Source: Bacteroidales bacterium (GTDB taxonomy: Bacteria > Bacteroidota > Bacteroidia > Bacteroidales > UBA7960). From it: a stretch of DNA of 64,000 nucleotides. The notes below the pieces were generated by a model. It saw only the letters and a program-made list of their open reading frames with translations, had not been told where the DNA came from and did no database searches. Position 1 is the first letter of the stretch. Every line of letters begins with the position of its first letter. Position numbers and translations under genes: made by a program. Positions 1,890 to 53,634 of this stretch are shown piece by piece. The stretch is taken from positions 34,223-98,222 of the forward strand of contig SKRM01000032.1 of assembly GCA_007118495.1 (NCBI GenBank), given 5' to 3'.

Positions 1890-4775
1890 ATGATAACTAA
1901 TAACTTCAACGAACGTCACAACGGCATCAGGAAGCAGGATGAAGCCAGGATGCTTGAAAAAATCGGAATCAAATCATCAGACGAACTGATTGATCAAACC
2001 ATACCGGCCAGTATCCGCCTCAAAAAAGACATGGACCTGCCAGATGGCCTGAACGAGTACGAATATATTCAACATCTGAAATCTCTGGGTTCAAAAAATC
2101 AGCTATACCGGTCATACATCGGCATGGGGTATTACAATACCATTTTACCAGGTGTTATTCAAAGAAACATACTTGAAAATCCTGGTTGGTATACAGCCTA
2201 CACCCCCTATCAGGCTGAAATATCACAAGGACGACTTGAAGCTCTGCTGAATTTCCAGACCGTTATCTCAGACCTGACAGGGCTTGAAATTGCCAATGCA
2301 TCATTGCTTGACGAAGCTACGGCTGCTGCAGAGGCAATGATCATGCTTTTCAATTCAAGACCAAGAGATGCTGTTAAAAAAGGAGTAAACAAATTCTTTG
2401 CATCGTCAAACTGCTTTCCGCAAACACTTGACGTACTCAAAAACAGGGCAGAGCCCCTGGGAATAGAACTTGTTATTGACCACCACGATAAGGTTGAGCT
2501 TGACGAAGCCTATTTTGGCGCACTTCTCCAATATCCCGACGGGAATGGTGCTGCAACACAATATGGACCATTTATGGGAAAAGCCAGCGAGTTGCATATC
2601 CGTGTTGCGGTGGCTGCTGACTTGCTTAGCCTTACCATGCTGACACCTCCGGGTGAATGGGGTGCTGATGTAGTAGTTGGCTCAGCCCAACGTTTTGGTG
2701 TTCCGATGGGTTATGGCGGACCGCATGCAGGCTTTTTTGCTACCAAAGAAGAATTCAAACGTGCCGTACCTGGCCGCATCATTGGTGTGTCTGTTGACAG
2801 AAATGGCAATTATGCCTTGCGTATGGCCCTGCAAACTAGAGAACAGCATATCAAGCGTGAAAAAGCCACATCAAATATATGCACGGCTCAGGCATTGCTT
2901 GCCTCCATGGCTGCTATGTATGCCGTTTATCATGGGCCAAAGGGTCTGAAAAAAATTGCCCGCCACATCAACATCCTGACAGGTGTACTGGCACAGGAGG
3001 CTGAAAAATACGGATACAAGCAATTGAATGCGTATTTCTTTGACACCCTGCTCATTGCCTTGCCTGACAATGTTTACGCCAACCAGGTTCACCAGCTTGC
3101 CACAGAAAAAAAGATGAATTTCAGGCATATTGATGACAAGCATGTGGGGATCAGCCTTGACGAAACCACGTCATTGGGTGATGTCAATGAAATTCTTGAA
3201 ATATTTGCAACCGCAGCAGGAAAATCTTTCCAGGCCTTTGTATGTGTTCCTGAAGAATGCGTCAAAATTACCACCATTCCGGAGGCATTGGCCAGAACAA
3301 GTGATTTTCTTCAACAGCCTTGCTTCAACAGCTACCACTCCGAAACCGAGATGATGCGTTATCTGAAGAAGCTCGAAAACCGTGACCTGGCACTGAACAG
3401 AACCATGATCCCCCTGGGTTCGTGTACCATGAAACTCAATGCCGCTTCAGAACTGTTTGCCCTGAGTTGGCCTGAATTTGCCAACATCCACCCATTTGTT
3501 CCGGATGATCAGGCAGCTGGATATCTCGAACTGATCCGCAACCTTGAACATGACCTTTGTGAGATCACTGGTTTTGCCGGCATTTCATTCATGCCCAATT
3601 CAGGCGCTTCAGGCGAATATACTGGGTTGGCTGTCATACAGGCATACCACAAAAGCCGGGGTGAAGGACACAGGGATGTTACCCTTATTCCCTCTTCTGC
3701 TCACGGAACCAATCCGGCCAGCGCGGTGATGGCAGGCACCAGGGTTGTTGTTGTCAAGTGTGACGAAAACGGCAATATCGATATCGATGATCTGAAAAAG
3801 AAAGCAGAAGCCCACAAAGACAACCTGGCGGCCATCATGGTCACCTATCCTTCAACCCATGGGGTATTTGAAGAAGAGATTCTTGAGGTGACCCGCATCA
3901 TTCATGCACATGGCGGACAAGTATATATGGATGGGGCCAACATGAATGCCCAGGTTGGATATACCAATCCGGCCATCTGTGGCGCAGATGTTTGCCACCT
4001 GAATCTCCATAAAACTTTTGCCATTCCCCATGGAGGTGGCGGCCCGGGTGTTGGACCTATTGGCGTTGCCAAACACCTGCTTCCATTCTTGCCCTCGCAC
4101 ACCATGCACAAAACAGGAGGTGAGCAGGGTATCAACGCAGTTGCTGCAGCACCATACGGAAGTGCATTTATTTTAACCATTACCTATGGCTATATAAAAC
4201 TCATGGGTGGACAGGGACTGAAAGAAGCTACAAAACTGGCCATACTAAGCACAAACTACCTTAAGGTTTCACTTGAAGGTCATTATGAAGTGCTTTATAC
4301 CGGAAAAAATGGCTGGGCGGCGCATGAAATGATTCTTGACTGCAATCCATTCAGACGGGCGGTATCCATTGACGCTATTGATATTGCCAAACGCCTGATG
4401 GACTACGGTTTCCACGCACCAACCGTAGCATTCCCCGTTCCTGGAACATTGATGGTCGAACCCACTGAAAGTGAACCCCTGTCAGAACTTAATCGATTCA
4501 TTGATGCCATGATGGCAATCCGTGAAGAAATCAGAGAAATTGAAGAAGGAAAAGCTGACAAGGGAAACAACGTGATTACCAATGCGCCACACACTGCTGA
4601 GATGGTGATCAGCTCTGATTGGGACAAGCCATACAGCAGAGAAAAGGCTGCCTTTCCACAACCCTGGTCAGCAGAGATCAAGTACTTCCCCCCTGTCACA
4701 AGGATAGACGATGCTTATGGAGACCGGAACCTGATCTGTACCTGTGACCCCATTGAAAGTTATGCACAGGATTAA
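1890..4775 (+). CDS. gcvP: glycine dehydrogenase (decarboxylating), single-chain P protein
   Basis: 961 aa, full-length match by eye to GcvP ([40 protein letters not shown]-Lys region). Confidence 0.95.
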
Positions 4776-4813
4776 TTTGCCAGGGCGCACATAATTCATA
4801 CACAACACAGCAG

Positions 4814-4852
4814 AAAAAAGCCGCTTCAGTAACTGAGGCGGCTTTTATTTTT
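4814..4852. terminator. bidirectional rho-independent terminator between convergent gcvP and the acyl-CoA ligase gene
   Basis: A6-AGCCGCTTCA-gtaac-TGAGGCGGCT-T3AT5: a 10-bp stem (one G:U) flanked by an A-run and a T-run. Confidence 0.8.
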
Positions 4853-4864
4853 CCTGGCAATTGA

Positions 4865-6556
4865 TCAATTATCATTCTTTTTCTCAAAGTATAGGAAGCG
4901 TTTGATCTTTTTTGTTGGTGTCTTCTCAAAAGGCTCAGGTTGTTCTTCAATAATTGAAACCCTTGAAAACCTGTTAAGCCTGGCATTGACCTTTTGCTGA
5001 ATTTCACCTAGTCGCTGCCTGACTTTCTCCTGAACCTGATCATACATTTGTCCGGCTGAAGCCTTCAGCTCATGATAGCGCTGGTCAATCTCCTCATAAT
5101 TAAGGTGTACCTTGGCTACAAGCTTACCCCTTAATTCATAAACAAGTGATTCAAGCACATGCTTTTCGCTGTTGATGACTTCTTCGATGTCTTCGGGATA
5201 AATGTTCTCACCCGTTGAACTGATAATGATGTTTTTTAACCTCCCCTTGATGAATACATAACCATCTTCATCAATAAAACCAAGGTCTCCGGTTCTAAAC
5301 CAACCGTCTGAAGTAAATACCTCTTTTGTTAGTTCTGGTTCTTTGTAATAGCCTTGCATCACATTGGGCCCCCGTGTAATGATTTCACCTTCGCCTGTGA
5401 TGGGGTCAGGATCCAATAGTTTAATCTCCTGGCCGGGAAGAGAAAAACCGGTTGACCGGTATTTTGTAAGAGAAGGATTACATCCAGCCAAAAGCGGAGA
5501 TGTTTCGGTTAGTCCGTAGCCTATGGCGTAGGGGAACCGGGCATCGCGCAAAAATTGTTCGGTCTGTGCATTAAGTTTTGAACCACCTATGCCAAAAAAA
5601 TGAAGTTTGCCTCCAAATGCCTTATAGATTTTCTTACCTGCCATCTTGTGGAAAAACTTTCTGACAGATTTTGCACCGGTAAGCAATTTCATAACAGGAC
5701 TTCCACTAAGTTTTGGAAGCACCTTATTCTGGTACACTTTTTCAATGATCAGAGGCACGGTAAGCATCATGGTTGGTTTGATCTGCTGCATGGCTGGCAA
5801 CAACACCGCCGGTGTTGGCAGTTTATCAAGGTAGTATACTGAAGCTCCGTTCATAAAGGGGATTACAAACCCGATGGTACACTCATAGGTATGGGGTAAA
5901 GGCAGCACCGATAAAAGTCTGTCTTCATGATTTACATCCTGAATACCCATGGTATTGATGGCATTGGATATTATATTCCTGTGGCTCAGCATCACGCCCT
6001 TGGGTTTTCCGGTAGTTCCCGAGGTATACAATATGGCGGCCAGATCATCCTCCTGCGGAACAGGGGCTTCCATATCGTTTGGGATGTCGCGGGCCGGATG
6101 CCCCAAAAGGCTTAGTCCCATTTCAAGGCTACCCAGGCTGATCTCTGAAAAATCATCTATCAATATGGCTGACTTCAGGGTATTCGGAAGTTCCTGCTTA
6201 AGCTTGTGCGATTGCTTTTCTGAAACGATAACAGCCCTGGCTTCACTATGCTGCAGTATTTTGGCAATTTCAGCCTCTGTAAAATCGATAAGAATCGGCA
6301 CCACTACAGCACCCATTCCAGTAATAGCCAAATAAGCTATGCCCCAGTTGGGCATATTCTGGCTGAGCAAGGCGACCCTATCTCCCTTACCAACTTCCTG
6401 ATAAACAAGCATGTTTTTAAGTCGGTCAATACTTTGTTTAACCTCATGGTACGTTAAGGGTTCCTGTCCAGCAAAACCCAGGGCCGGGCGGTTTGCAAAA
6501 TTAGATGCGCTCGATTCTAGCAGCGCATTGAAAGTAAGTTTTTCTGGAATGGTCAT
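4865..6556 (-). CDS. long-chain fatty acid-CoA ligase (AMP-dependent synthetase)
   Basis: 563 aa with AMP-binding motifs LYTSGTTGKPKGVMLSHRN, GYGLTETSP, TGDLG. Confidence 0.85.
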   Translation of the reverse strand: MTIPEKLTFNALLESSASNFANRPALGFAGQEPLTYHEVKQSIDRLKNMLVYQEVGKGDRVALLSQNMPNWGIAYLAITGMGAVVVPILIDFTEAEIAKILQHSEARAVIVSEKQSHKLKQELPNTLKSAILIDDFSEISLGSLEMGLSLLGHPARDIPNDMEAPVPQEDDLAAILYTSGTTGKPKGVMLSHRNIISNAINTMGIQDVNHEDRLLSVLPLPHTYECTIGFVIPFMNGASVYYLDKLPTPAVLLPAMQQIKPTMMLTVPLIIEKVYQNKVLPKLSGSPVMKLLTGAKSVRKFFHKMAGKKIYKAFGGKLHFFGIGGSKLNAQTEQFLRDARFPYAIGYGLTETSPLLAGCNPSLTKYRSTGFSLPGQEIKLLDPDPITGEGEIITRGPNVMQGYYKEPELTKEVFTSDGWFRTGDLGFIDEDGYVFIKGRLKNIIISSTGENIYPEDIEEVINSEKHVLESLVYELRGKLVAKVHLNYEEIDQRYHELKASAGQMYDQVQEKVRQRLGEIQQKVNARLNRFSRVSIIEEQPEPFEKTPTKKIKRFLYFEKKNDN

Positions 6557-6574
6557 AAGCTATGTTTCAACTTG

Positions 6575-6582
6575 CAAAGTTA
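6575..6582 (-). promoter_or_regulatory. candidate Bacteroidota -7 promoter box (TAACTTTG on minus strand)
   Basis: Matches TAnnTTTG, 18 nt upstream of the acyl-CoA ligase ATG. Confidence 0.35.
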
Positions 6583-6700
6583 AGCATAAAACCCGACCGG
6601 GCATATGAATATTAAATGAATGTTTCAAAAACTCCACCTAAAGAAGACACAAGGGGGTTGAACACGATCTGACATAAAGGTTAAGGGATGTACATGAAGA

Positions 6701-15121: not shown

Positions 15122-16654
15122 TCAGAATGGTACTTCGTCATCATCCATTTCATTCATCTTGGAGGGAATGGTCATGGTATTTGGCTGGTCATCAAATGAG
15201 CCGGAAGGTTTCATATCGGGCGCAAAAGCATAGTCTCCCCTGTCGTAATCTGTAAATTTGGCAAAATTCTGAATAAACCTCAGATCGATATCTTTTAATG
15301 CACCGTTTCGGTGTTTGGCAATGATCAGCTGAGCCAGTCCCTCGGTTGAATTACCCTGTTCATCTTCCGTGATCTGGTAATATTCCGGCCTATATATAAA
15401 CAACACCATATCGGCATCTTGTTCAATGGCTCCTGATTCTCGTAAATCTGACAATATGGGTCGTTTTGATCCGCCCCTGGTCTCAACAGCCCTGCTAAGC
15501 TGTGAAATGGCAATCACAGAGATTTCAAGCTCTTTTGCCAGACTCTTCATTGACCTTGAAATATTACTGATCTCCTGTTCTCTGTTACCCCTGTGGTTAT
15601 CGCTACCCGCAGTCATCAACTGTAAATAGTCAACAATCACAAGCTGAATGTTATGCTGGGCTTTAAGGCGCCGGCATTTTGCCCTGAGCTCAAAGATCGA
15701 TAAAGCAGGCGTATCATCTATATACAAAGGTGCTTCGGTAAGTGTACCCAACCGGGCATTCAGTTGTTCCCACTCATACTGCTCCAATTGTCCACGTTTG
15801 AGTTTATCTGCAGCAAGCTCCGTTTCACTTGCTATGAGCCTTGTTACAAGTTGTACACCTGACATCTCAAGTGAAAACACAGCAATGGGCTTCTTGAAAT
15901 CAACAGCCATGTTTCTGGCCATCGAAAGCACAAAAGCTGTCTTACCCATACCAGGTCTTGCGGCCAAAACAATCAGGTCAGATTTTTGCCAGCCGGCAGT
16001 AACCCTGTCAAGCTCTGTGAAGCCGCTGGGAATGCCACTAATGTGGCCATCCTGGTTTTTAGCGCCCTCTATTTGCTTGACTGCTTCCTTGATAAGTGAA
16101 TGCATGTCATCATAGTTGCGGCGCAAATTGGTTTCGCTAACGGCAAACAACTCTTTTTCGGCACGATCAAGAATATCAAACACATCCTTGGCATCCTCAT
16201 ATGACTCCCTGATAATCTCTGAGCTGATCCGTATCAGCTCACGCTGAATGAATTTCTGTAAGATAATTCTTGCATGATATTCAACATTGGCAGCACTGGC
16301 AACCCTGCTGGTAAGCATGGAAATATAATATGCCCCTCCGCAAATTTCAAGCTGACCATCCTTTTTCAGGGTTTCAGTAACTGTAAGAATATCCACTGGT
16401 TTTCCGGCACCAAACAACTTATGCATGGCGGCAAAAATCTTCTGGTGAGCCTCCTTGTAAAAAACCTCAGTTTTGAGAATATCAATTACATTTGTTAAAG
16501 CATCCTGCTCAAGCATCATGGCACCCAAAACAGCTTCTTCAAGGTCGGTGGCCTGGGGGGGAATTCTCCCATGATCAGTATAATCAATTGGCAAGGAATG
16601 TTTTGGCCGGACTCGTCCGGTTACCTCTCGGATTTTTTGCTGATTTTCTTCCAT
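15122..16654 (-). CDS. dnaB: replicative DNA helicase
   Basis: 510 aa. N-terminal domain (PPQATDLEEAVLGAMML), Walker A ARPGMGKTAF, Walker B VIVDYLQLM, SDLRESGAIEQDAD. Confidence 0.95.
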   Translation of the reverse strand: MEENQQKIREVTGRVRPKHSLPIDYTDHGRIPPQATDLEEAVLGAMMLEQDALTNVIDILKTEVFYKEAHQKIFAAMHKLFGAGKPVDILTVTETLKKDGQLEICGGAYYISMLTSRVASAANVEYHARIILQKFIQRELIRISSEIIRESYEDAKDVFDILDRAEKELFAVSETNLRRNYDDMHSLIKEAVKQIEGAKNQDGHISGIPSGFTELDRVTAGWQKSDLIVLAARPGMGKTAFVLSMARNMAVDFKKPIAVFSLEMSGVQLVTRLIASETELAADKLKRGQLEQYEWEQLNARLGTLTEAPLYIDDTPALSIFELRAKCRRLKAQHNIQLVIVDYLQLMTAGSDNHRGNREQEISNISRSMKSLAKELEISVIAISQLSRAVETRGGSKRPILSDLRESGAIEQDADMVLFIYRPEYYQITEDEQGNSTEGLAQLIIAKHRNGALKDIDLRFIQNFAKFTDYDRGDYAFAPDMKPSGSFDDQPNTMTIPSKMNEMDDDEVPF

Positions 16655-33994: not shown

Positions 33995-34897
33995 TTAAGA
34001 AAAATCTGCAAATTTGGCAATACTTTCAATAAAATGAAGTGGGACAACGACTTCCCGGTCGGGTTCGGTAGTTTTTGCCACTATAAGTTCAACGCTGCTA
34101 CCAATGGGCTGTTGTGATCCGGCAACAGGAAAGGCATCATTGCGGTGAAGCACCATGAGCACATCCGATTCTTCCCTTAAAAATGCCGGCATGGCCCCCA
34201 TTGAAGGCCTGCCTGCCGGAATCAGACTGTTTGTGTGACCTGCCGACTGAGAAAATAAAATAACGGGAGTATTCAGCTCTTGGGCCATGGCTTTAATCTC
34301 ATTCATTATTCCAGCCAACCTGACTGAGGGATCGCCTTCACCTGCAAGGGCAGTTGTAAGTAATTCAAGGTAATCAACAATGATCAGATCAACTTTGTGG
34401 AGGCCACATAATTTACCTGCTTTAATCCGAAGTTCTTCAACAGCCAGGGCTGGTGTATCGTCAATGTAGATCTTGGCTTTTGCAATGCTGCTGAGCAGTG
34501 AAAGCATATGGTCCCTTTCACTGTCTTTGAATTTTCCTGACTGCAGCCTGTTAAGCGACATTCCGGTTTCACTTTCGATAAGCCGGTTGGTCATTTTGAT
34601 GTTAGACCGCTCAGATGAGAAAATGGCCACCGAGTAAGTATCTTTTATGGCCATATTATTGGCAATGGACAATAAAAAAGCGGTCTTACCCATACCTGGC
34701 TTCACCGCAATTGTATACATTTGTCCTTTTTTGAATCCTCCGATTGCTTTGTCCAGCTCACGGAAGCCTGAGGGAATTCCCTCAGCTGGAAGGTTTAAAC
34801 CGAAATCTTTGTTCAGGGTCTGGTTTACCAGTGCACGAATGCTGGTAAACCCCAAACCCTCTGGGAGCTCTGTGATTTCTAAGGTGTTTGTTTCCAT
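33995..34897 (-). CDS. DnaB-family RecA-like ATPase lacking the DnaB N-terminal domain (DnaB_C-only paralog)
   Basis: 300 aa: Walker A KPGMGKTAF, FSSERS, IYIDDTPAL, Walker B LIIVDYLELL. Collinear with residues ~200-470 of the dnaB product in this window. Confidence 0.8.
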   Translation of the reverse strand: METNTLEITELPEGLGFTSIRALVNQTLNKDFGLNLPAEGIPSGFRELDKAIGGFKKGQMYTIAVKPGMGKTAFLLSIANNMAIKDTYSVAIFSSERSNIKMTNRLIESETGMSLNRLQSGKFKDSERDHMLSLLSSIAKAKIYIDDTPALAVEELRIKAGKLCGLHKVDLIIVDYLELLTTALAGEGDPSVRLAGIMNEIKAMAQELNTPVILFSQSAGHTNSLIPAGRPSMGAMPAFLREESDVLMVLHRNDAFPVAGSQQPIGSSVELIVAKTTEPDREVVVPLHFIESIAKFADFS

Positions 34898-35023
34898 AAT
34901 GAGAAGTATTTTATAAACGGGATAGAAAAAATCTTATCTGCTGTTTTTAGAGAACCCACAATATAAGGAATTTTTTTTAAAAAAGGATATTTGAACTTTT
35001 TTGACCCTGTTTCGTTATGTAAG

Positions 35024-35038
35024 TTGATTTGATTTGAT
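35024..35038 (+). repeat. three tandem TTGAT pentamers immediately upstream of the MerR-family gene start
   Basis: TTGATTTGATTTGAT ends 3 nt before the ATG at 35042. TTGAAC (34991) and TTGACC (35001) lie upstream, 10 bp apart. Confidence 0.8.
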
Positions 35039-35041
35039 AAA

Positions 35042-35926
35042 ATGATGATGCGATATTCAATTAATGATCTTGAAAAATTATCAGGAATCAAGGCCCATAC
35101 CATCAGGATATGGGAGAAGAGGTATAATATTGTAACCCCTTCGCGCACCGATAGCAACATCAGGTATTACAGCGACTATGACTTGAAAAGAATACTAAAC
35201 ATAAGTACGCTGAACAAACACGGCTTTAAAATATCTCAGATTGCCCGCATGCCAGAAGAAGATGTGAAGGAGAAGATCATGGAAATATCGGGCAACAATC
35301 ATGATTACGAAAGCATCATCAACGGACTCATTGTATCAATGATAGAGCTTAACGAAGACGCATTTGAACACATATTAAGTAATGCCGCCATCAAGCTTGG
35401 ATTTGAAAAAACCGTAACACATGCTTTGTATCCTTTTCTTGAGAAAGTAGGCACACTATGGCAGATTGGAACCATCAACCCCGCCCAGGAACACTTCATT
35501 ACTTATCTGATCAGGCAAAAGCTTATAATCGCCATTGACGGACAGGCAAAGACCCCTGCACCCGGAGCAAAAACATTTTTGTTGTTTCTTCCGGAAAATG
35601 AACTACACGAACTGGGGCTGCTTTTCTATAGTTTTTTGCTGAAGAAAAACGGATACAAAGTTATTTATCTTGGCCAGTCAGTGCCTTTTAATGATCTGCT
35701 TGAGGTGATCAGAATTCGCAACACTGATTATCTGCTCACCTATTTTGTTGCAGCCCTGAACCAAAAAGAGATCCCACCTTATATCAAAAAAATATCCTCT
35801 GCCATGCCTGGCAAAAAGATCATTGTAACCGGAATACAACTCAGTGAGCCTTTAACAGGCCTGCCCGATAATGTAATTCAGGTGAAAGATGCAGAAGACT
35901 TCAAAAAAGTGCTAAAAACACTCTAA
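35042..35926 (+). CDS. MerR-family transcriptional regulator with CarH/LitR-like B12-binding C-terminal domain
   Basis: N-terminal MerR HTH. Wx9EH (W140..E150 H151, nt 35459-35494) and ExHxxG (E187..G192, nt 35600-35617). Confidence 0.75.
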   Translation: MMMRYSINDLEKLSGIKAHTIRIWEKRYNIVTPSRTDSNIRYYSDYDLKRILNISTLNKHGFKISQIARMPEEDVKEKIMEISGNNHDYESIINGLIVSMIELNEDAFEHILSNAAIKLGFEKTVTHALYPFLEKVGTLWQIGTINPAQEHFITYLIRQKLIIAIDGQAKTPAPGAKTFLLFLPENELHELGLLFYSFLLKKNGYKVIYLGQSVPFNDLLEVIRIRNTDYLLTYFVAALNQKEIPPYIKKISSAMPGKKIIVTGIQLSEPLTGLPDNVIQVKDAEDFKKVLKTL

Positions 35927-36025
35927 ATTTTTTTTAACCTTTTTTCACATCTTTTTCTATCTGCGGTTTTATGCCGTTGGTTGACGGCTATATTTTGTTT
36001 ATAGAAAAACCCGGTTTAGCCTCAT

Positions 36026-36197
36026 TTTTGTTTAACCTATTAGACAGTCTCAGAAGTCATTAAATTTGCATTAATGCATTTTAATGCTTAATTTTATATT
36101 GCAAACAGATTTATATCGCACACGAATCACCATAATTGCTAAACTAAATTTGTTAAATAATTCTAAACTGCTTGCGAAACAGAATATTTTGTTTAAC
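36026..36197 (+). repeat. 11-nt direct repeat TTTTGTTTAAC at both ends (36026-36036 and 36187-36197)
   Basis: Exact 11-mer seen twice. A 9/11 variant TTTTGTTTATA lies at 35993-36003. The second copy overlaps the candidate -7 box. Confidence 0.8.
36067..36078. repeat. perfect 12-bp palindrome TGCATTAATGCA, with TTAATGC repeated 10 bp downstream
   Basis: Read directly. TTAATGC lies at 36071-36077 and at 36081-36087. Confidence 0.85.
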
Positions 36198-36201
36198 TTT
36201 G
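36194..36201 (+). promoter_or_regulatory. candidate -7 promoter box (TAACTTTG) for the ECF sigma gene
   Basis: Matches TAnnTTTG, 40 nt upstream of the ATG at 36241. Confidence 0.4.
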
Positions 36202-36240
36202 ATTTAAAACAATTAAACAACAATTAAAACCCATCACGAT

Positions 36241-36738
36241 ATGACAGCATTAGAATTTAACTATAAGCTCCTGGGGTTGCAAAAGAATCTGAAGTATTTT
36301 GCATACACATTAACCTCAAACTACGAAGATGCACAAGACCTGGTACAGGAAACCTATCTGAAGGCATTAACAAATCGCGAAAAGTTTACTGACAATACCA
36401 ATTTGAAGGCATGGACTTTTACGATTATGAAGAATACCTTCATTAATAATTACAGGCAAAATGTACGCAATAACACCATCCTTGACAAGACTGACGACCT
36501 CTATTACCTGAATCTTTCAAAAGAGAGCAGCATAGGGCTTCCAGATTCTGACTACACACTGAAGGAAATGCACAAGGCCATTGAAAAAATCAGTCCTGAA
36601 CAACGCACCCCCTTTGTGATGTACAACCAGGGGTACAAGTACAAGGAAATTGCCGAAAAGCTCGATTTGTCAATCGGTACAGTGAAGAGCCGTATCTTCT
36701 TCACCAGGAAAAAACTCATGGACGCACTGAAAGACTAA
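36241..36738 (+). CDS. ECF-type RNA polymerase sigma-70 family factor
   Basis: 165 aa. Region 2 DAQDLVQETYLKAL...LKAWTFTIMKNTFINNYR. Region 4 HTH YKEIAEKLDLSIGTVKSRIFFTRKKL. Confidence 0.85.
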   Translation: MTALEFNYKLLGLQKNLKYFAYTLTSNYEDAQDLVQETYLKALTNREKFTDNTNLKAWTFTIMKNTFINNYRQNVRNNTILDKTDDLYYLNLSKESSIGLPDSDYTLKEMHKAIEKISPEQRTPFVMYNQGYKYKEIAEKLDLSIGTVKSRIFFTRKKLMDALKD

Positions 36739-36780
36739 TCCACAAAATGGCATAACCCCATATTTTCCCTTTATAAGCTC

Positions 36781-36807
36781 TCCCCGGCAGGTTTTACCAG
36801 TCGGGGA
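36781..36807 (+). terminator. weak candidate terminator after the sigma gene
   Basis: TCCCCG-15 nt loop-CGGGGA followed by TTCTTTTATCTTT. Short stem and large loop. Confidence 0.3.
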
Positions 36808-36813
36808 TTCTTT

Positions 36814-36821
36814 TATCTTTG
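36814..36821 (+). promoter_or_regulatory. candidate -7 promoter box (TATCTTTG) for aspartate kinase
   Basis: Matches TAnnTTTG, 30 nt upstream of the ATG at 36851. Confidence 0.4.
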
Positions 36822-36850
36822 TACAGCAAACCAACCACTACCTGATCAGT

Positions 36851-38146
36851 ATGCGTGTATTTAAATTTGGAGGTGCTTCGGTTAAAGACCCTGATTCAGT
36901 GCGTAATGTTGCCAGAATAATTATTGATCATCATGGCAGCGGACCTTTGGTCGTGGTTTTATCAGCCATGGGAAAAACCACCAATGCCCTCGAACAACTT
37001 TGTGCAAACTTTATGGAGGGCAAGACAACGGCTATGCTGAAAATATTTGAGCAAATCCGTGACGTGCATTTCGATATTGCCAGAGATCTTTTCCCTGACA
37101 GCAAGCATGCTATTTTCAAAATATTGGAGCAATCGTTTTATCATTTATACTATTACATAAGTGAACCCCCCGGAAAAAATTACAACTACGAATACGACCG
37201 CATAGTGTCTACAGGTGAGGTGGTTTCAACCCAGATACTCAGCGCTTACCTGAAAGAAGCCGGACTGTCAAACAGGCTTTTCCCGGCACAGAAGCTGGTC
37301 ATCACCGATGCCAGTTTTCGTGATGCAAGGGTCGACTGGATTCTGACCACTCAGTCAATCCAAAAACAGCTTACACCATTTCTGAAACAGGGTGCCGGGC
37401 CATGCAGTCCTTCGTTGGTAATCACCCAGGGGTTCATAGGAGGCACACCGCAGGGCTTCACCACCACTCTGGGCAGAGAGGGGTCTGACTTTACTGCGGC
37501 CATCCTGGCCTATGCATTAAACGCCAGTGAGGTAGTTATCTGGAAAGATGTACCCGGACTACTAAATGCAGATCCCAAATTACTCGCTGAAACCGTCCTG
37601 CTCGATAACATAAGCTATCAGGAAGCCATAGAGCTCTCCTATTACGGGGCAACCATCATCCACCCAAAAACCCTGAAGCCCCTGTTAAGCAAAAACATAC
37701 AACTGAAAGTCAAATCATTTCACGATCCTTCCATGCCAGGATCGGTTATCAATGATAATCAGCATCATGATGGGCAGATCCCCTCATTTATCTTTAAATT
37801 CAATCAGGTTCTTGCATCTATATTCCCCAAAGACTTCAGTTTTATAGCTGAAGATAATTTATCCATCATTTTCAGTGATTTTGCCAGACATGGTGTAAAG
37901 ATCAACCTGATGCAGAATTCGGCAATCAGTTTCTCTGTTTGTTTTGACAAGGATAAGACCAAAACACCTGCCTTACTCAAAGACCTGAATAAGAACTTCT
38001 CCGTTAAGTACAATGATAACCTTGAGTTAATCACTGTCAGGCATTATGACAAGGCCAATCTGCAAGATATTATTAAAAACAGAGAGGTTTTGTTGGAGCA
38101 GAAAAGTCGTACCACGTTGCAACTGGTCGTACAGAAAAAAACCTGA
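36851..38146 (+). CDS. aspartate kinase
   Basis: MRVFKFGGASVKD..., VVVLSAMGKTTN, LGREGSDFTAA, C-terminal ACT-like region. Confidence 0.88.
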   Translation: MRVFKFGGASVKDPDSVRNVARIIIDHHGSGPLVVVLSAMGKTTNALEQLCANFMEGKTTAMLKIFEQIRDVHFDIARDLFPDSKHAIFKILEQSFYHLYYYISEPPGKNYNYEYDRIVSTGEVVSTQILSAYLKEAGLSNRLFPAQKLVITDASFRDARVDWILTTQSIQKQLTPFLKQGAGPCSPSLVITQGFIGGTPQGFTTTLGREGSDFTAAILAYALNASEVVIWKDVPGLLNADPKLLAETVLLDNISYQEAIELSYYGATIIHPKTLKPLLSKNIQLKVKSFHDPSMPGSVINDNQHHDGQIPSFIFKFNQVLASIFPKDFSFIAEDNLSIIFSDFARHGVKINLMQNSAISFSVCFDKDKTKTPALLKDLNKNFSVKYNDNLELITVRHYDKANLQDIIKNREVLLEQKSRTTLQLVVQKKT

Positions 38147-39118: not shown

Positions 39119-40426
39119 TTATTGACTTATCATTTCTTGAAATGACTGAAGCAACTCGCGGCCTGCGTTCTGGCAAGCACTGCCTACCCTGTCGATGGAG
39201 AATTCCAGATAATAATCAGGATTCATATCTCGCCTTCCTGAATAAATTACAGGGATCATAAGCTGTTGTCCTGAAATCAGTGTACCATCTCTGCCAAAGC
39301 GCCCAGTGTTTGGTGGATGGTTAATAATAAACCATGAACAGACACCAAACTGGGCATATATCCTGCTCCAGGTATCACCCGACCTGACAGTGTATGCAAC
39401 ATCATCAGGAATAACCGGATCCGGTTTTTGTTCTTCCGGTAAAGGAGCTTCAATCATTTCTTGCATGACGGGCGTTTCAACCGATGGGATCCTGACCGGA
39501 GGCCTGGGGTCGTGGATTAAAAGGTCGTAAACCATGTAAACCACAGCCAGCAATGCCAAAACGTAAAAGATACGCCAGAGCAGGCTTGTGTCTTTTTTGC
39601 CCTTATTTAAGCCTGGTTTTTTTGCCATGTCTATGGTTTCTGTCTGCACATTTGTTTCATCAGAAGCCTCCATCGGGAGCTCTCTTTGATAAGGCTTTCC
39701 CGCTATAAACGCTCTTTTTTCAGTATCCAGGTTATAAAAACCTACCATCACCAAAGCCGCGAGACTACCTGATGCCTTCTCACAAACCATCCGGGTAATC
39801 CTTGCCACTTTGGTCTGCAGGGGCATGGAGTCTTGGATGATGCGGCGTGTAGCCTTTTCTTGAAAGCTTAGACATACTTCATGCGAAGACAAAAGCAAAA
39901 CATCACCATTCACAGGCCTTATACGTCCTGAAGTTACTTCTGGATTGATCATGGGTTCAAGCCCAAGATACCAGGATGATTGCCCGCTTATTTCGGCCTT
40001 TTCGGGGAACCAGGTAAGGGGAAAAAGTTTTTTTCCGGTAAATAGCTGTCCGCATACATCTCCTATCCAGGCAAGAGCAAGATCACCATCCTTATATAAC
40101 CCACATATGCAACTTAAGTTTGCCGGAATCACTGAAGCATCTTTCTTTACCATCTGATATATAAACCCACTGGTGTATGAAAGGGCATTGGCCGCAGCAA
40201 CGTTGATATCCGGCTCTGTTTCGTTCTCAAGGTAATACCTGATCCTTTCAAGGGCAACCTCCGTGAGTTTGGCCTGATGTGCATTGTGCACACCTGAGGA
40301 TACCAAAACAAAAGCATAACCATTGGGAGTATCAAATCCATCCTGCCGGCACATACCTTCAAACTCCGGGCGGCCTTGCTGAGAGAGGCCGGCATACTCA
40401 AAATTGTTTAATTTCCTGGTTGTCAT
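39119..40426 (-). CDS. PP2C-like (apparently degenerate) domain / TM helix / LysM domain protein
   Basis: The N-terminal ~240 aa resemble the PP2C layout (WIGDVCG, GDVLLLSSHE) but lack the DGxGG and DN acidic motifs. TM helix LLWRIFYVLALLAVVYMVYDLLI. LysM YTVRSGDTWSRIYAQFG...GQQLMIP (nt 39251-39394). Confidence 0.55.
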   Translation of the reverse strand: MTTRKLNNFEYAGLSQQGRPEFEGMCRQDGFDTPNGYAFVLVSSGVHNAHQAKLTEVALERIRYYLENETEPDINVAAANALSYTSGFIYQMVKKDASVIPANLSCICGLYKDGDLALAWIGDVCGQLFTGKKLFPLTWFPEKAEISGQSSWYLGLEPMINPEVTSGRIRPVNGDVLLLSSHEVCLSFQEKATRRIIQDSMPLQTKVARITRMVCEKASGSLAALVMVGFYNLDTEKRAFIAGKPYQRELPMEASDETNVQTETIDMAKKPGLNKGKKDTSLLWRIFYVLALLAVVYMVYDLLIHDPRPPVRIPSVETPVMQEMIEAPLPEEQKPDPVIPDDVAYTVRSGDTWSRIYAQFGVCSWFIINHPPNTGRFGRDGTLISGQQLMIPVIYSGRRDMNPDYYLEFSIDRVGSACQNAGRELLQSFQEMISQ

Positions 40427-48912: not shown

Positions 48913-51270
48913 ATGACACCTGAAATTCTTCTGATTTTCGCCATATTGGGAATTTCTCTGCTGCTGTTTTTTACGGGTTGGGTACGTATGGACATTGTTG
49001 CCCTGCTGGTCATTGGCACCCTTGCTTCGACGGGTTTGATCACACCCTATGAAGCCCTGGCGGGATTCAGCAATCCGGCCGTAGTTACTGTCTGGGCCAT
49101 GTTTATTCTCAGCGCAGCCCTTTACCAGACAGGCATAGCCAGAATTATTGGCCGGCATATGCTCCGCCTTGCCGGGCATAATGAGATCAGGCTGATCGTC
49201 ATGATCATGCTATCATCGGGGTTTATGTCAGCTTTCATGAATAACATCGGAGTTGCTGCCCTGATGTTGCCTGTGGTTATGGACCTGGCCAGATCAAGCC
49301 AGAAACCTCCTTCAAGATTACTTATGCCTCTGGCTTATGGGTGTCTGCTAGGTGGTATGACTACACTGATCGGAACCCCACCCAACTTGTTGATCAGTTA
49401 TGCATTGGAAGAAAACGGACTGCGGCCTTTTGGATTGTTTGACTACACTCCCCTTGGTCTCGGTGCCCTGCTGGGGGGAACATTGTTCATTGCTTTGATT
49501 GGCAGACTTTTTCTTTCTAAACGAGATGTAATAAGCGAAACCAGCCAACAATCTGCAAAGGCTCTTACTGCCTCATACTCTCTTCAGGAAAGGGCTTTTC
49601 TGCTATCTGTAAAACCAACATCCCAGATGGTAGGCAAAACCCTTGCAGAAAGCAGGCTGAGGGCAGGGCTGGGGCTGAACGTGCTTTCAATCATCAGAGA
49701 AGGCGGTAACGTTCTTGATCCGGGCCCGCAAACCAGGATTTTGGCCGGAGATAAGCTACATGTACAGGGAAGGGTCGAATCACTGAAGACCATGAAGAAG
49801 TGGAGGGTATTGCTCCCTGAACAATCAGATATAAGCATAAGCGATATATTGAAAACTGAATTGTTTCTATTTGAAGCAATTATACCCGAGGGATCTCCAT
49901 TGACCGGCCGATGGCTCAGAGATACCGATTTTCGTAAAAGACTGGGTATAAATGTACTTGCCCTTGAAAGGGATGGCCAGATTCAACGTTCAACATTGCA
50001 TGAAATAATGCTACAGGCAGGAGACACCCTTTTGCTTCAGGGAACAGGAGAACGCCTGGATATTCTCGGGCAAGAGGGAGCAATCAAAGACATCAGGGAA
50101 CTATCACCCAATGACCTGACCGAAAGATACAGGCTGCAAGAGGTGCTTTTTATGATGGAAGTTCGGGGTGATGCCGGGCTATTTGAACGTGCCATTACAG
50201 AAAGCCAGATTGGCAGTGCCTTCGGGTTGACAGTTCTCGGAATATTCGGTGAAGAAGATAGGATGCATGCTTATATTCCGGGAACCAAATTCAAAGAAAA
50301 TGACCGTTTGCTCGTAAAAGGCAACATCAGAGACCTGCCCTTGCTACGAGGTCTTAAAGATCTTGAACTACTTGAGGAGGATGTGCCAACAATCCATTCA
50401 TTGGAATCTGAAGACGTTCAAATGGCCGAAGTGGTGCTGGCACCCAGATCGCTTTTGGCAGGAAAAACATTAAAAGACATTAATTTCAGAAATAAATATG
50501 GGCTGACAGTACTCGCCATATGGCGTGAAGGTCGGGCGTACAGGACTAACCTGCACAACCTTCCGCTGCGTTTTGGCGAAGCCTTGCTTCTTTATGGCCG
50601 GAAAGATAAGCTGGAACTTATCGGAAGTGAACCTGACTTCATCCTGCTCACAGAAATGAGCAAGTCACCACTGCGCACCGGAAAAGCCCTTATCTCTGCC
50701 CTTATCATGGCCGGCATACTCATACCTGTGCTGCTGGGATTTATTCCCCTGGCCATTGCTGCACTCATAGGAATTGCCCTGATGGTGTTAACTGGTTGCC
50801 TTAGAATGGAAGAGGCTTACCGTGCCATTGAATGGCGCGCAGTATTTCTGATTGCCGGAATGCTGCCACTGGGAGCAGCCATGCAAAACTCAGGAGCTGC
50901 CGCATACCTTGCCGGTGGCGTTGTAGAGATATTCGGGACCTTCGGTCCCTGGGGTATTATTATAGGCTTATATCTGCTCACTGCCATGTCAACCCTGGCC
51001 ATCCCACCTCCTGCCCTTGTGGTGATCATGTCACCTATTGCAATAGAAGCTGCCGCGACTTTTGATATTTCTCCGCACAGCCTGATGATGGCCATCGCCA
51101 TGGCTGCGGCTGCCTGCTTTATGAGTCCTGTTTCTCACCCTGCCAATTTACTGGTTATGGGGCCGGGAGGATACAAGTTCAGTGACTATATTAAGCTTGG
51201 CCTTCCGCTAACCCTTGTGGTAATGGTTATAGTCTTGCTGCTCTTGCCCATATTCTGGCCATTTCAGTAA
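48913..51270 (+). CDS. SLC13/DASS-type anion permease with four central RCK_C (TrkA-C) domains, copy 1
   Basis: 785 aa. The transmembrane halves (SAFMNNIGVAALMLPV, SPVSHPANLLV) flank four ...G..L.....R...G..VL.I.R.G...........L..GD.L...G units. Confidence 0.8.
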   Translation: MTPEILLIFAILGISLLLFFTGWVRMDIVALLVIGTLASTGLITPYEALAGFSNPAVVTVWAMFILSAALYQTGIARIIGRHMLRLAGHNEIRLIVMIMLSSGFMSAFMNNIGVAALMLPVVMDLARSSQKPPSRLLMPLAYGCLLGGMTTLIGTPPNLLISYALEENGLRPFGLFDYTPLGLGALLGGTLFIALIGRLFLSKRDVISETSQQSAKALTASYSLQERAFLLSVKPTSQMVGKTLAESRLRAGLGLNVLSIIREGGNVLDPGPQTRILAGDKLHVQGRVESLKTMKKWRVLLPEQSDISISDILKTELFLFEAIIPEGSPLTGRWLRDTDFRKRLGINVLALERDGQIQRSTLHEIMLQAGDTLLLQGTGERLDILGQEGAIKDIRELSPNDLTERYRLQEVLFMMEVRGDAGLFERAITESQIGSAFGLTVLGIFGEEDRMHAYIPGTKFKENDRLLVKGNIRDLPLLRGLKDLELLEEDVPTIHSLESEDVQMAEVVLAPRSLLAGKTLKDINFRNKYGLTVLAIWREGRAYRTNLHNLPLRFGEALLLYGRKDKLELIGSEPDFILLTEMSKSPLRTGKALISALIMAGILIPVLLGFIPLAIAALIGIALMVLTGCLRMEEAYRAIEWRAVFLIAGMLPLGAAMQNSGAAAYLAGGVVEIFGTFGPWGIIIGLYLLTAMSTLAIPPPALVVIMSPIAIEAAATFDISPHSLMMAIAMAAAACFMSPVSHPANLLVMGPGGYKFSDYIKLGLPLTLVVMVIVLLLLPIFWPFQ

Positions 51271-51279
51271 CTTTGTGCC

Positions 51280-53634
51280 ATGACGCTTGAGATTGTTTTG
51301 GTATTTGGCATTCTGGGGCTGGCACTGTTACTGTTTTTAACAGGCTGGGTAAGAATAGATATTGTAGCCCTGTTGGTTATGGGGACACTTGGCTTAACCG
51401 GCCTGGTTTCTCCAAGGGAAGCACTCGCTGGCTTCAGCAACCCTGCGGTCATAACTGTCTGGGCCATGTTCATCCTCAGCGCAGCGCTTTACCAGACAGG
51501 AGTAGCCAGAATCATCGGGGTTCATATTTTACGTCTGGCGGGTGAAGGAGAAGCCAGACTCATTGTCCTGGTCATGCTCACCGCAGGATTGATGTCAGCA
51601 TTTATGAACAATATCGGGGTAGCTGCCCTTATGCTGCCCGTGGTTATGGACATGGCCAGGTCAAGAAACATTTCACCCTCAAGGCTTTTGCTCCCCCTGG
51701 CCTATGCTACCATGCTGGGAGGCCTGACCACGCTTATCGGAACACCACCCAACCTACTCATCAGCCATGCCATGGAGGATGGTGGTCACACACCTTTTTT
51801 ATTCTTTGATTACACCCCCATAGGGATCAGCGCCCTTTTTGCCGGTATCATATTTATGGTTTTTGTTGGCCGTTTTCTGCTCCCAAAAAAGGATGCACTT
51901 ACAGAAATCAATAAAATCAGGCGAAATGTTCCCGGCAAGTCATACGGGATTTCCGAGCGCAGCTTTTTGCTCAGGGTATCTCAAGACTCTTTTCTTGCCG
52001 GAAAAACCCTTCAGGGAAGCCGCCTGCGCAGAGGTCTCGGATTGAATGTCATCAGCATAACCCGCGACGGGCAGGTGATCAGAAGCCCGGATGCTTCTGA
52101 AGTGCTGCAGACAGGTGACATGCTCTATGTACAGGGTAATGAAGATGTGTTCAGGTCTATGCAGCACTGGGAGGCCATTTTGCCCGAGGCAGAAAAGATC
52201 AGCACTGAATCACTGCTTGGGCAGGAACTGATGTTTTTTGAAGTTGACCTGAGCGAACAAAGCTCCCTGTCTGGAACCAGACTTCAGGACACCAGATTCA
52301 GAAAGAGATTGGGGATCAACGTAATTGCTGTAAAAAGGGGGACACAGATCATCCGCGATATGCTGCACGAATTGTTGTTGCAAAAAGGAGACACGCTTTT
52401 ACTGCAAGGGCCTGTTGACAGAATTAAGAAACTCAGAGAAGAAGGCCGTGTGGGCACGGTCAGGCCTGCTGACAAAGACCTGTTAATCAACCAATACAAT
52501 TTACATAAGTCGTTGTTTTTGATCAAAGTACATGGAGATGCGGAACTACTGCAGGAGTCAATTGCAGAAAGCCATATTGGTAGTGCATTTGGCATTACGG
52601 TAATTGGAACACTACAGGATAATAACAAGCTGGAGCCTTATTCTCCAAAATCAGAAATACATAAAGATGACTGGCTATTGGTCAAGGGGAACATGGATGA
52701 TCTGCCCATATTCCAGGCACTGATGGAACTGGAAATTATTGAAAAAGCAGGCGACAGACCCTTGAATATAGAGTCAGACGAAGTCATGTTGGCAGAGGCC
52801 ATTCTGGCCCCCAGATCGCTGCTGGCAGGAAAAACCTTGCGCGAGATCAACTTCAGGCAAAAATACGGTCTTACTGTTCTGGCCATTTGGCATGAAGGTG
52901 AAGTACACATGAACAGAATCCATAACCAGCCCCTGAAATACGGTGAAGCACTACTTGTTTATGGACAGCGAGAAAAACTTGAACTCCTGGGCAAAGAAGA
53001 AGACTTCATACTGCTTACTGAAATTGGCGAACAACCCCGCAGGACAAAAAAAGCAAAAACAGCTGCCCTGATAATGGCAGCCATGCTGTTGCCGGTTATC
53101 GTCGGTATCATTCCCCTGGCCAACGCAGCCATACTGGGCATCGCCCTGATGGTGCTAAGTGGGTGTTTGAAAATGGAAGAAGCATACAGGGCCATTGAAT
53201 GGCGTGCTGTATTTCTAATTGCCGGAATGTTACCATTGGGAACTGCCATGCAGGAAACAGGTGCAGCAAATGTACTGGCCCACTGGGTAGGGACCCTTTT
53301 TGGCTCGATGGGGCCATGGGGGCTTATCGGAGGGTTATACCTGATCACGGCATGCCTCACCATTGCAATACACCCGGCAGCAATCGTAGTGATAATGTCA
53401 CCAGTGGCACTTGAATTGGCATCGACATCAGGCATATCTCCCCATACAGTTATGATGGCCGTGGCTATTGCAGCAGCGGCTGTTTTCATGAGCCCGGTAT
53501 CGCACGCAGCCAATCTGATTGTTATGGGTCCGGGGGGTTACCGCTTTCGTGACTATTTAAAAGTTGGCATACCCATGACACTGGTGGTAATGCTTGTTAC
53601 CATGCTCCTTTTACCAATAATATGGCCTTTGTAA
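51280..53634 (+). CDS. SLC13/DASS-type anion permease with four central RCK_C (TrkA-C) domains, copy 2 (tandem paralog)
   Basis: 784 aa, collinear with copy 1 over its full length. Starts 9 nt after the copy 1 stop. Confidence 0.8.
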   Translation: MTLEIVLVFGILGLALLLFLTGWVRIDIVALLVMGTLGLTGLVSPREALAGFSNPAVITVWAMFILSAALYQTGVARIIGVHILRLAGEGEARLIVLVMLTAGLMSAFMNNIGVAALMLPVVMDMARSRNISPSRLLLPLAYATMLGGLTTLIGTPPNLLISHAMEDGGHTPFLFFDYTPIGISALFAGIIFMVFVGRFLLPKKDALTEINKIRRNVPGKSYGISERSFLLRVSQDSFLAGKTLQGSRLRRGLGLNVISITRDGQVIRSPDASEVLQTGDMLYVQGNEDVFRSMQHWEAILPEAEKISTESLLGQELMFFEVDLSEQSSLSGTRLQDTRFRKRLGINVIAVKRGTQIIRDMLHELLLQKGDTLLLQGPVDRIKKLREEGRVGTVRPADKDLLINQYNLHKSLFLIKVHGDAELLQESIAESHIGSAFGITVIGTLQDNNKLEPYSPKSEIHKDDWLLVKGNMDDLPIFQALMELEIIEKAGDRPLNIESDEVMLAEAILAPRSLLAGKTLREINFRQKYGLTVLAIWHEGEVHMNRIHNQPLKYGEALLVYGQREKLELLGKEEDFILLTEIGEQPRRTKKAKTAALIMAAMLLPVIVGIIPLANAAILGIALMVLSGCLKMEEAYRAIEWRAVFLIAGMLPLGTAMQETGAANVLAHWVGTLFGSMGPWGLIGGLYLITACLTIAIHPAAIVVIMSPVALELASTSGISPHTVMMAVAIAAAAVFMSPVSHAANLIVMGPGGYRFRDYLKVGIPMTLVVMLVTMLLLPIIWPL

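Follow-up and report, generated by a model that had tools for sequence, protein, structure and literature searches.

The MerR/B12 gene and the sigma factor gene beside it

Two genes stand side by side in the window analyzed here, a 64-kb stretch of DNA (64,000 nucleotides [nt]) from a Bacteroidales bacterium (contig SKRM01000032.1 of assembly GCA_007118495.1, forward-strand positions 34,223 to 98,222): one for a MerR-type regulator with a C-terminal half of the B12-domain kind and, behind it on the same strand, one for a sigma factor of the extracytoplasmic function (ECF) type. A first-pass annotation, made from the sequence alone, had described them as a CarH/LitR-like regulator and its partner in a LitR-LitS-like pair. 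Both open reading frames (ORFs) lie where it had placed them, with 294 amino acids encoded at 35042-35926 (+) and 165 at 36241-36738 (+); its positions for W140 (35459-61), H151 (35492-94), and E187-G192 (35600-35617) are likewise right, and the spacer between the genes is AT-rich as described (314 bp, 28% G+C versus 45% in the window). The length of 294 amino acids is counted from the first of three ATG codons (N-terminus MMMRYSINDLEKL), while the true start is probably the second or the third (35045 or 35048), because homologs open with MIRYS(IN). The two genes and the domains of the regulator are listed here in window coordinates.

35042-35926 (+): merR/B12 gene for a predicted CarH/LitR-like repressor of 292 to 294 amino acids (Pfam, NCBIfam, phmmer, homolog alignments, AlphaFold2 model with Foldseek)
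35054-35251 (+): residues 5-70, MerR winged helix-turn-helix (wHTH) (PF13411, 6.8e-17)
35318-35524 (+): residues 93-161, four-helix bundle with G137xxW140 and E150-H151 (PF02607)
35573-35920 (+): residues 178-293, Rossmann B12 domain with E187xH189xxG192, G211xxxP215, T233-Y234-F235, and T263-G264
36241-36738 (+): ECF-type sigma factor gene, 165 amino acids, with just regions 2 and 4, predicted to be controlled directly by the repressor (Pfam/NCBIfam, synteny)

The assignment of the regulator as a CarH/LitR-like MerR protein is one on which Pfam, the best NCBIfam family, the sequence search of the Protein Data Bank (PDB), and the predicted fold agree. The N-terminal region matches MerR_1 (PF13411) at 6.8e-17, above the gathering score, and aligns to the DNA-binding domain of Thermus thermophilus CarH (TtCarH); the middle region matches B12-binding_2 (PF02607) at 2.1e-9, with 37.9 bits against a gathering score of 23. 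These are two of the three Pfam domains that the first-pass annotation had proposed to look for; the third, B12-binding (PF02310), which covers the Rossmann half, stayed below threshold (18.6 bits, gathering score 32.1), and the clade may therefore have escaped surveys that start from this entry. Among NCBIfam families the CarH equivalog NF052513 scores best (91.2 bits, E = 6.6e-26), and in a phmmer search against all PDB chains T. thermophilus CarH/LitR came first (1.5e-19 to 1.9e-19). Residues W140, Q141, E150, H151, and H189 stand opposite TtCarH W131, H132, E141, H142, and H177 in the phmmer alignment (native TtCarH numbering, derived via the 5-residue offset of chain 3WHP_A), so that the four residues named earlier as cofactor contacts (W140, E150, H151, and H189) do match those of the Thermus protein. 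In the AlphaFold2 model (predicted local distance difference test score, 81), a winged HTH is joined by a helical bundle and by an alpha/beta domain of five strands; its top-ranking Foldseek matches in the PDB are without exception TtCarH (E ~1e-14), and CtMerR (8JBS/8JBT) comes next. Joint Genome Institute pipelines label homologs “light-induced transcriptional regulator.” From sequence and model, the protein is best described as belonging to a distinct Bacteroidota clade of the class I LitR/CarH family.

The later B12-domain motifs had been called degenerate, a view that the alignments overturn. Among 24 homologs (61 to 91% identity), W140, Q149-E150-H151, E187, H189, E190, G192, G211, Q212, P215, T233-Y234-F235, G264, and Q266 are invariant. 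When the wider family was sorted by the presence of the carotenoid genes crtI/crtB beside merR, the elements GxxW, (Q/H)EH, PExExHExG, GQxxP, T233, and G264 proved as well conserved in the 18 crt-linked members as in the 41 crt-less ones with a sigma gene. At position 234, the counterpart of the canonical SxL Ser, most relatives have Ser and some have Ala, and the subclade of the window has Tyr; position 263, the first Gly of GG and a Thr in the window, is Ser, Thr, Ala, or Gly across the family, and the pattern of T-x-hydrophobic and x-G is found in crt-linked orthologs too. On this alignment evidence we read TYF and TG as a conserved clade trait, not as decay, and the altered SxL/GG is therefore no argument against cofactor binding; the low PF02310 score likewise appears to reflect a Rossmann half that is divergent but constrained rather than dying. 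For TtCarH past residue 217, the sequence used is partly borne out by phmmer, and the SxV/GG register is less certain than that of W, EH, and H. One locus, L085, from a Porphyromonadaceae metagenome-assembled genome (MAG), encodes a MerR protein (5889-6662) in which the cap and axial residues are gone (EH to ER, ExH to HDM) beside a sigma factor kept at 60% identity; it is, by its residues, the sole locus with real sensor decay.

These residues bear on the possibility that the protein is a B12-independent repressor, like CarA or the class II/III LitR proteins, that comes off the DNA through the action of a partner protein or in response to redox state or singlet oxygen. Such LitR/CarH classes exist (PMC9758184; PMC9304148) and provide a precedent, and the sub-threshold PF02310 score, the replaced Ser of SxL and first Gly of GG, and the missing GxxH would all suit it. 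Against it, the axial His, ExHExG, GQxxP, and Wx9EH have been invariant over hundreds of millions of years, crt-linked members included, a pattern not easily accounted for unless a corrinoid is bound, while L085, clearly devoid of these residues, shows what real decay looks like; nor does a conserved partner gene adjoin the pair. We consider this explanation improbable.

Distribution of the pair and its promoter elements

Eighty loci were gathered from species-representative genomes across Bacteroidota, with 12-kb flanks around the pairs of the relatives; pair counts are given over 82 loci and counts of the exact palindrome over 86. In 59 of the 82 loci the gene directly 3' of merR, on the same strand, is a sigma ortholog (44 to 90% identity). 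Bacteroidales (among them Lentimicrobium), Cytophagales, Chitinophagales, and Flavobacteriales contribute these loci, and the other neighbors all vary. The pairing, for which the first-pass annotation had advised a conservation check, is thus kept across four orders, and by this comparison it is a phylum-wide module of Bacteroidota.

In ~21 loci, from aerobic-type orders, crtI (Amino_oxidase) and crtB (SQS_PSY) accompany merR. The order is merR-sigma-crtI-crtB in 18 of them, with a NUDIX idi gene next in most, a gap of often just a few bases between sigma and crtI, and, in a few, lycopene cyclase and LytB near the crt genes. No crt gene follows sigma in the Bacteroidales loci, where sigma stands alone behind a longer spacer (205 to 779 bp in crt-less Bacteroidales loci versus 52 to 226 bp in crt-linked ones). 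A rough neighbor-joining tree (no support values) places the crt-less Bacteroidales inside a grade of crt-linked sequences, a hint that they are nested within crt-linked lineages. Genes for B12 uptake or biosynthesis are linked to the pair in none of the 82 loci. Photolyase genes occur after the crt genes in L045 and L066 and as the divergent neighbor of merR in L042, a crt-less Bacteroidales MAG in which the photolyase gene (4465-5760, -) faces away from merR-sigma and the intergenic region (5761-6000) holds CGAAC-N17-GTTT ~95 nt 5' of the photolyase start. In the window itself, a Pfam scan of nearly all ORFs of at least 140 amino acids across the 64 kb found no carotenoid (crt), photolyase, or cobalamin genes, as had been claimed earlier for the first two.

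Six loci from Marinilabiliales (L027, L033, L037, L051, L075, and L077; Carboxylicivirga, Saccharicrinis, Mariniphaga, and Prolixibacteraceae) have no sigma gene adjacent to merR. In all six, a gene for a 450-amino-acid protein with three fasciclin domains lies directly 5' of merR on the same strand, and in L075 the palindrome described below is found 5' of this gene.

The 165-residue protein matches Sigma70_r2 (4.9e-16) and Sigma70_r4_2 (1.1e-15) in Pfam and TIGR02937 in NCBIfam (90.9 bits, cutoff 42.9), with regions 2 and 4 only, as in ECF sigma factors. The earlier observation that no anti-sigma gene adjoins it stands: a hairpin and T-run follow sigma, and then a gene for aspartokinase. More broadly, no partner gene recurs 3' of sigma in any locus, where the neighbors vary and often lie on the opposite strand; since no gene recurs beside it, the factor most plausibly has no cognate anti-sigma and is controlled via its synthesis. 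It is better conserved than the repressor, with 79 to 92% identity among relatives whose MerR proteins are 63 to 71% identical, which points to strong purifying selection. A relationship with the PG0214/GFO_1088 (SigCH) family (NF058625) was considered and set aside. The likeness is that of a Bacteroidota ECF sigma factor of the same size, with a full-length alignment at 88 bits, but the window sigma scores 87.9 bits and five orthologs 83 to 99 against a cutoff of 130, and the gene context differs: PG0214 heads the PG0214-0218 cluster and controls cdhR/hmuYR (PMC11018363), which is unlike the merR-sigma context.

The noncoding features around the two genes are given below.

34992-35016 (+): ECF-like promoter of merR, TGAAC (34992-96), N16, CGTT (35013-16), 25 nt before the first ATG (motif enrichment)
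35952-36009 (+): terminator-like hairpin after merR, inner stem 35973-35988 and then TATATTTTGT (-17.7 kcal/mol, z = -4.2)
36078-36107 (unstranded; block 36062-36107): conserved block with a degenerate palindrome, ATTTTAA-N16-GCAAACA, 112 bp 5' of the predicted operator (spacer alignment)
36171-36201 (+): predicted housekeeping promoter of the sigma gene, Bacteroidetes type, -33 CTTG (36171-36174), 19 nt, -7 TAACTTTG (36194-36201) (spacer alignment)
36190-36219 (unstranded): predicted operator, perfect palindrome TGTTTAA-N16-TTAAACA (alignment of eight spacers, exact and mismatch counts)
36781-36821 (+): hairpin CCCCGGCAGG...CCAGUCGGGG (36781-36807) and T-rich run after sigma (weak z = -1.7 for the whole stretch)

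Alignment of the spacers of eight close relatives revealed an invariant block just 5' of the sigma ATG, which holds the palindrome (8-nt arms at 36189-36196 and 36213-36220). The palindrome has a single exact match in the window. Over 86 loci, the exact form is present in 47, and its copies, with one exception, are found in intergenic DNA that adjoins merR or the sigma or crt genes belonging to it; with up to two mismatches allowed, 61 of 82 loci have a copy next to merR, versus just 34 sites in the remaining 821 kb. Where sigma is absent, the palindrome remains with merR, 5' of crtI in both L063 and L071 and between the divergent crt and merR genes in L059; where another gene separates merR from sigma (L020 and L043), it remains at the sigma promoter. 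The palindrome, 22 bp before the sigma ATG, overlaps the -7 box with its left arm, and the TAAnTTTG columns of that box are invariant in the eight aligned orthologous spacers. CTTG and TAACTTTG match the Bacteroidetes housekeeping promoter consensus, TTTG/TAnnTTTG. We infer from position and co-occurrence that the conserved palindrome is the operator of the MerR protein, whose conserved DNA-binding domain fits a conserved site of this kind; the sigma gene would then have an ordinary promoter with a predicted repressor site across its -7 box and likely start point. The block at 36062-36107 might serve as an auxiliary operator or in DNA looping, and in the crt-linked loci L065, L066, and L069 two full palindromes lie ~63 bp apart.

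One might argue that the two genes are neighbors by inherited synteny alone and that the palindrome belongs to another regulator, as the entire DnaK-to-SerRS neighborhood is syntenic in the closest relatives. The pair, however, outlasts a full turnover of its other flanks across four orders; the palindrome tracks merR where sigma is missing and tracks sigma where a gene has come between them; and the sigma factor is under the strong purifying selection noted above. Adjacency without regulatory meaning is in our judgment barely credible.

Hairpins 3' of both genes suggest that merR and sigma are two separate transcription units, with sigma monocistronic; the stem of the hairpin after sigma is present in both the minimum free energy and the centroid structures. 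Other candidates in this region were discarded. An Rfam scan of 34700-37000 for an RNA element or riboswitch in the spacer gave a chance snoRNA match alone (16 bits, E = 0.36), and a 47-amino-acid spacer ORF called in public annotation (L001 11038-11181, corresponding to ~36085-36228, +) overlaps the promoter and operator, is uncalled in L004 and L005, and is probably spurious. A scan for E. coli-type promoters, uninformative for Bacteroidota, returned 6 matches versus 6.1 expected.

The merR gene itself is preceded by a motif of a different kind. TGAAC-N15-17-YGTT occurs 5' of merR in 22 of 78 regions versus 0.2 in shuffled sequences; as further controls, the reverse strand gave 2 occurrences and the spacers between merR and sigma none, and a relaxed form is found 5' of 26 merR genes versus 11 of ~730 other genes. 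There are four strict matches in the window, of which just the one 5' of merR is intergenic. No second recurring target gene family emerged for this motif in the 82 loci (the window and 12-kb flanks); single cases lie 5' of the L042 photolyase gene and 5' of a crtZ-like gene in L062. The TGAAC-N16-CGTT promoter of merR would probably be read by the sigma factor. As far as these motifs indicate, the sigma gene is the only inferable direct target of the repressor and merR the only candidate sigma target in the window, with the sigma regulon lying outside it.

A proposed light switch and its alternatives

The observed domain architecture, motif alignment, gene pair, palindrome and its placement, and enrichment of the ECF-like motif lead us to favor, as the rather probable reading, a light switch made of two genes and akin to CarH and LitR-LitS, in which an adenosylcobalamin (AdoCbl)-dependent repressor gates an ECF sigma factor. 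Corrinoid binding and a photolytic response to light are here inferred from sequence and by analogy. In this scheme the MerR/B12 protein would bind 5'-deoxyadenosylcobalamin, with H189 as the lower axial ligand and W140 and E150-H151 capping the adenosyl group. In the dark, the repressor would oligomerize and occupy TGTTTAA-N16-TTAAACA at 36190-36219; because this site lies across the -7 box and the likely start point, the bound repressor would block sigma-A RNA polymerase and keep the ECF sigma gene silent. Light would break the Co-C bond and take the repressor off the DNA, so that sigma is made, and for want of an anti-sigma partner the factor would be active as soon as it is made. It would then transcribe a regulon beyond the window and probably merR too, via TGAAC-N16-CGTT, providing negative feedback and a fast reset. 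In aerobic Bacteroidota transcription from the same sigma promoter would continue into crtI-crtB-idi, whereas the Bacteroidales lineage studied here would have lost the pigment genes and been left with the sensor-sigma core.

Several findings weigh against this reading. At the level of families, the Rossmann half is below the PF02310 gathering score and the CarH equivalog score of 91.2 bits is far under the 400-bit cutoff of NF052513. At the level of residues, Y234 replaces the Ser of SxL and T263 the first Gly of GG, so that the protein deviates from the canonical SxL/V and GG motifs; H132, R176, and D201 of TtCarH are replaced by Q141, L188, and S213 in the phmmer alignment. In TtCarH, H132 takes part in the bis-His light state and R176 and D201 belong to the tetramer interface, and because their equivalents are replaced, oligomerization and photochemistry may differ from those of TtCarH. 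The light-response signature obtained with SignatureFinder consists of GxxW, EH, GxxH, and GxxxP (PMC11796333); three of these four elements are present (G137xxW140, E150-H151, and G211xxxP215), while GxxH is N186xxH189 here, position 186 being G in about half of the relatives. A B12-independent, CarA-like action would be compatible with the motifs. The predicted operator is an inverted repeat and not a set of CarH-type direct repeats. Finally, the organism looks anaerobic, many relatives come from sediments or digesters, where light may be absent, and no light-protection gene lies within the window. The anaerobic appearance comes from 2-oxoacid:ferredoxin oxidoreductase subunits and a DUF2148 ferredoxin-domain protein, which Pfam identified in the window together with a thiol peroxidase.

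The same circumstances are the natural ground for a dark cobalamin sensor, made of the same parts but with the availability of AdoCbl as its signal: when B12 is present the repressor would keep sigma off, and under B12 starvation the apo-protein would leave the DNA and release a B12-related or stress regulon. The lineage appears anaerobic, its relatives were recovered from sediments, anoxic waters, and digesters by their record titles, the window has no crt or photolyase gene, and sigma stands alone behind a longer spacer in crt-less loci. DNA binding by CarH proteins is AdoCbl dependent (PMC4557120). Other observations are harder to fit. B12 uptake and biosynthesis genes are unlinked to the pair throughout the 82 loci, a photolyase gene adjoins the pair in L042 with CGAAC-N17-GTTT upstream, and crt genes follow orthologs whose pocket is the same. 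Also invariant is Wx9EH, the cap by which the light-sensing subgroup of B12 domains is recognized. We therefore hold this alternative to be unlikely, although light, cobalamin, or another signal are indistinguishable in silico.

A further version, which we put forward as a doubtful possibility, is that a CarH-type protein has been repurposed in pigment-free anaerobic Bacteroidales as a corrinoid-binding sensor of cobalamin or of “surface/daylight = oxygen,” its only direct output being an anti-sigma-less ECF sigma factor for a non-carotenoid stress or B12-economy regulon, with feedback on the sensor gene. If so, a protein rather than a riboswitch would link B12 status or light with global transcription in a large group of environmental anaerobes.

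B12 photoreceptors have been studied so far in a handful of aerobic, pigmented bacteria. Here one sigma-paired clade of B12-type photoreceptor homologs runs through the whole of Bacteroidota; the module, which normally precedes carotenoid genes, is pigment free in the apparent anaerobe of the window, and anaerobic lineages with no linked pigment genes have kept the pair under strong selection. Should light be the signal, many sediment and mat anaerobes would see daylight and probably anticipate oxidative stress; should it be cobalamin, the pair would be a protein-based B12 switch working through a sigma factor. The analysis delivers testable parts, namely, a 30-bp palindromic predicted operator, the promoter that it would block, and an ECF-like promoter of the sensor gene, and the repressor-operator-sigma set could serve as a compact optogenetic part for Bacteroidota.

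Surroundings of the pair and comparison with known systems

Divergent from merR lies a gene for a 300-amino-acid protein that consists of the DnaB C-terminal ATPase domain only (33995-34897, -; Walker A GMGKT), 18 kb from a full-length DnaB with N and C domains (510 amino acids, 15122-16654, -). This short paralog adjoins merR-sigma in eight close relatives, including L007, in which the other flanks are rearranged, and in L029 a 33%-identical copy lies directly 3' of sigma; a functional tie to the pair is possible. A SiaC/DUF1987 gene of the partner-switch type is located between the DnaB_C-like gene and merR in L005 (7130-7510), L006 (1606-1986), L009, and L017 and directly after sigma in L012; it thus recurs beside the pair in differing arrangements. 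Farther away, 39119-40426 (-) encodes a conserved 435-amino-acid protein with no Pfam match at 1e-5, which is syntenic in relatives at just 34 to 45% identity, far below its neighbors, and 48913-51270 and 51280-53634 (both +) encode tandem paralogous transporters of ~785 amino acids of the CitMHS/Na-sulfate symporter type with internal TrkA_C domains.

No description of the Bacteroidota MerR-B12/ECF pair, of its operator, or of CarH in anaerobic Bacteroidales was found in the literature searched, and the paper on ECF reclassification mentions MerR-like regulators just briefly. The closest relative of known structure is TtCarH (PDB 5C8D/5C8E/3WHP), which has the same architecture of MerR wHTH, four-helix bundle, and Rossmann B12 domain and is the best match to the window protein by both sequence (1.9e-19) and fold, yet at only ~22% identity. 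TtCarH, too, is a repressor whose operator overlaps a promoter. The window protein has no equivalent of its H132 and R176-D201 (Q141; L188 and S213), and the Ser of SxV and first Gly of GG are Tyr and Thr. Whereas the operator predicted here is an inverted repeat with a 16-bp spacer and half-sites 23 bp apart, that of TtCarH is made of direct repeats, reportedly three of 11 bp (Jost, 2015), and the predicted target here is a sigma gene instead of the crt genes or the regulator's own operon.

CtMerR of Chloracidobacterium thermophilum (8JBS/8JBT), matched in both fold and sequence, is a MerR-type AdoCbl photoreceptor that also lacks the bis-His histidine, having Arg where the window protein has Gln. 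The two have GxxW, EH, and GxxxP in common; the window protein differs from the CtMerR/SignatureFinder set in its NxxH in place of GxxH (G in many relatives) and in its sub-threshold PF02310 score. The CarH and CarA proteins of Myxococcus xanthus are likewise MerR repressors with a B12-domain C-terminus at a light-inducible promoter, and in CarA the same fold works without B12 (PMC9304148, PMC8156234). In M. xanthus, however, the antirepressor CarS counters CarA and the ECF sigma factor CarQ has the anti-sigma CarR, and no such partners are linked to the pair described here.

A parallel in wiring is LitR-LitS of Streptomyces coelicolor and Streptomyces griseus, an AdoB12-type MerR repressor over a neighboring ECF sigma factor. 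In the Streptomyces system, LitR-AdoB12 keeps the litS promoter repressed in the dark; the light regulon, crt included, is then driven by sigma-LitS (PMC11519972). Differences are nonetheless evident: litR and litS are divergent with bidirectional promoters, and LitR represses itself, while the Bacteroidota genes are in tandem, with separate terminators and an ECF-like merR promoter; and the crt genes driven by LitS are absent here and, in crt-linked relatives, are cotranscribed behind sigma. The phyla differ, and the likeness is one of wiring. Within that limit, the analogy proposed in the first-pass annotation is strengthened by a phylum-wide pair and by a conserved palindromic predicted operator on the sigma promoter.

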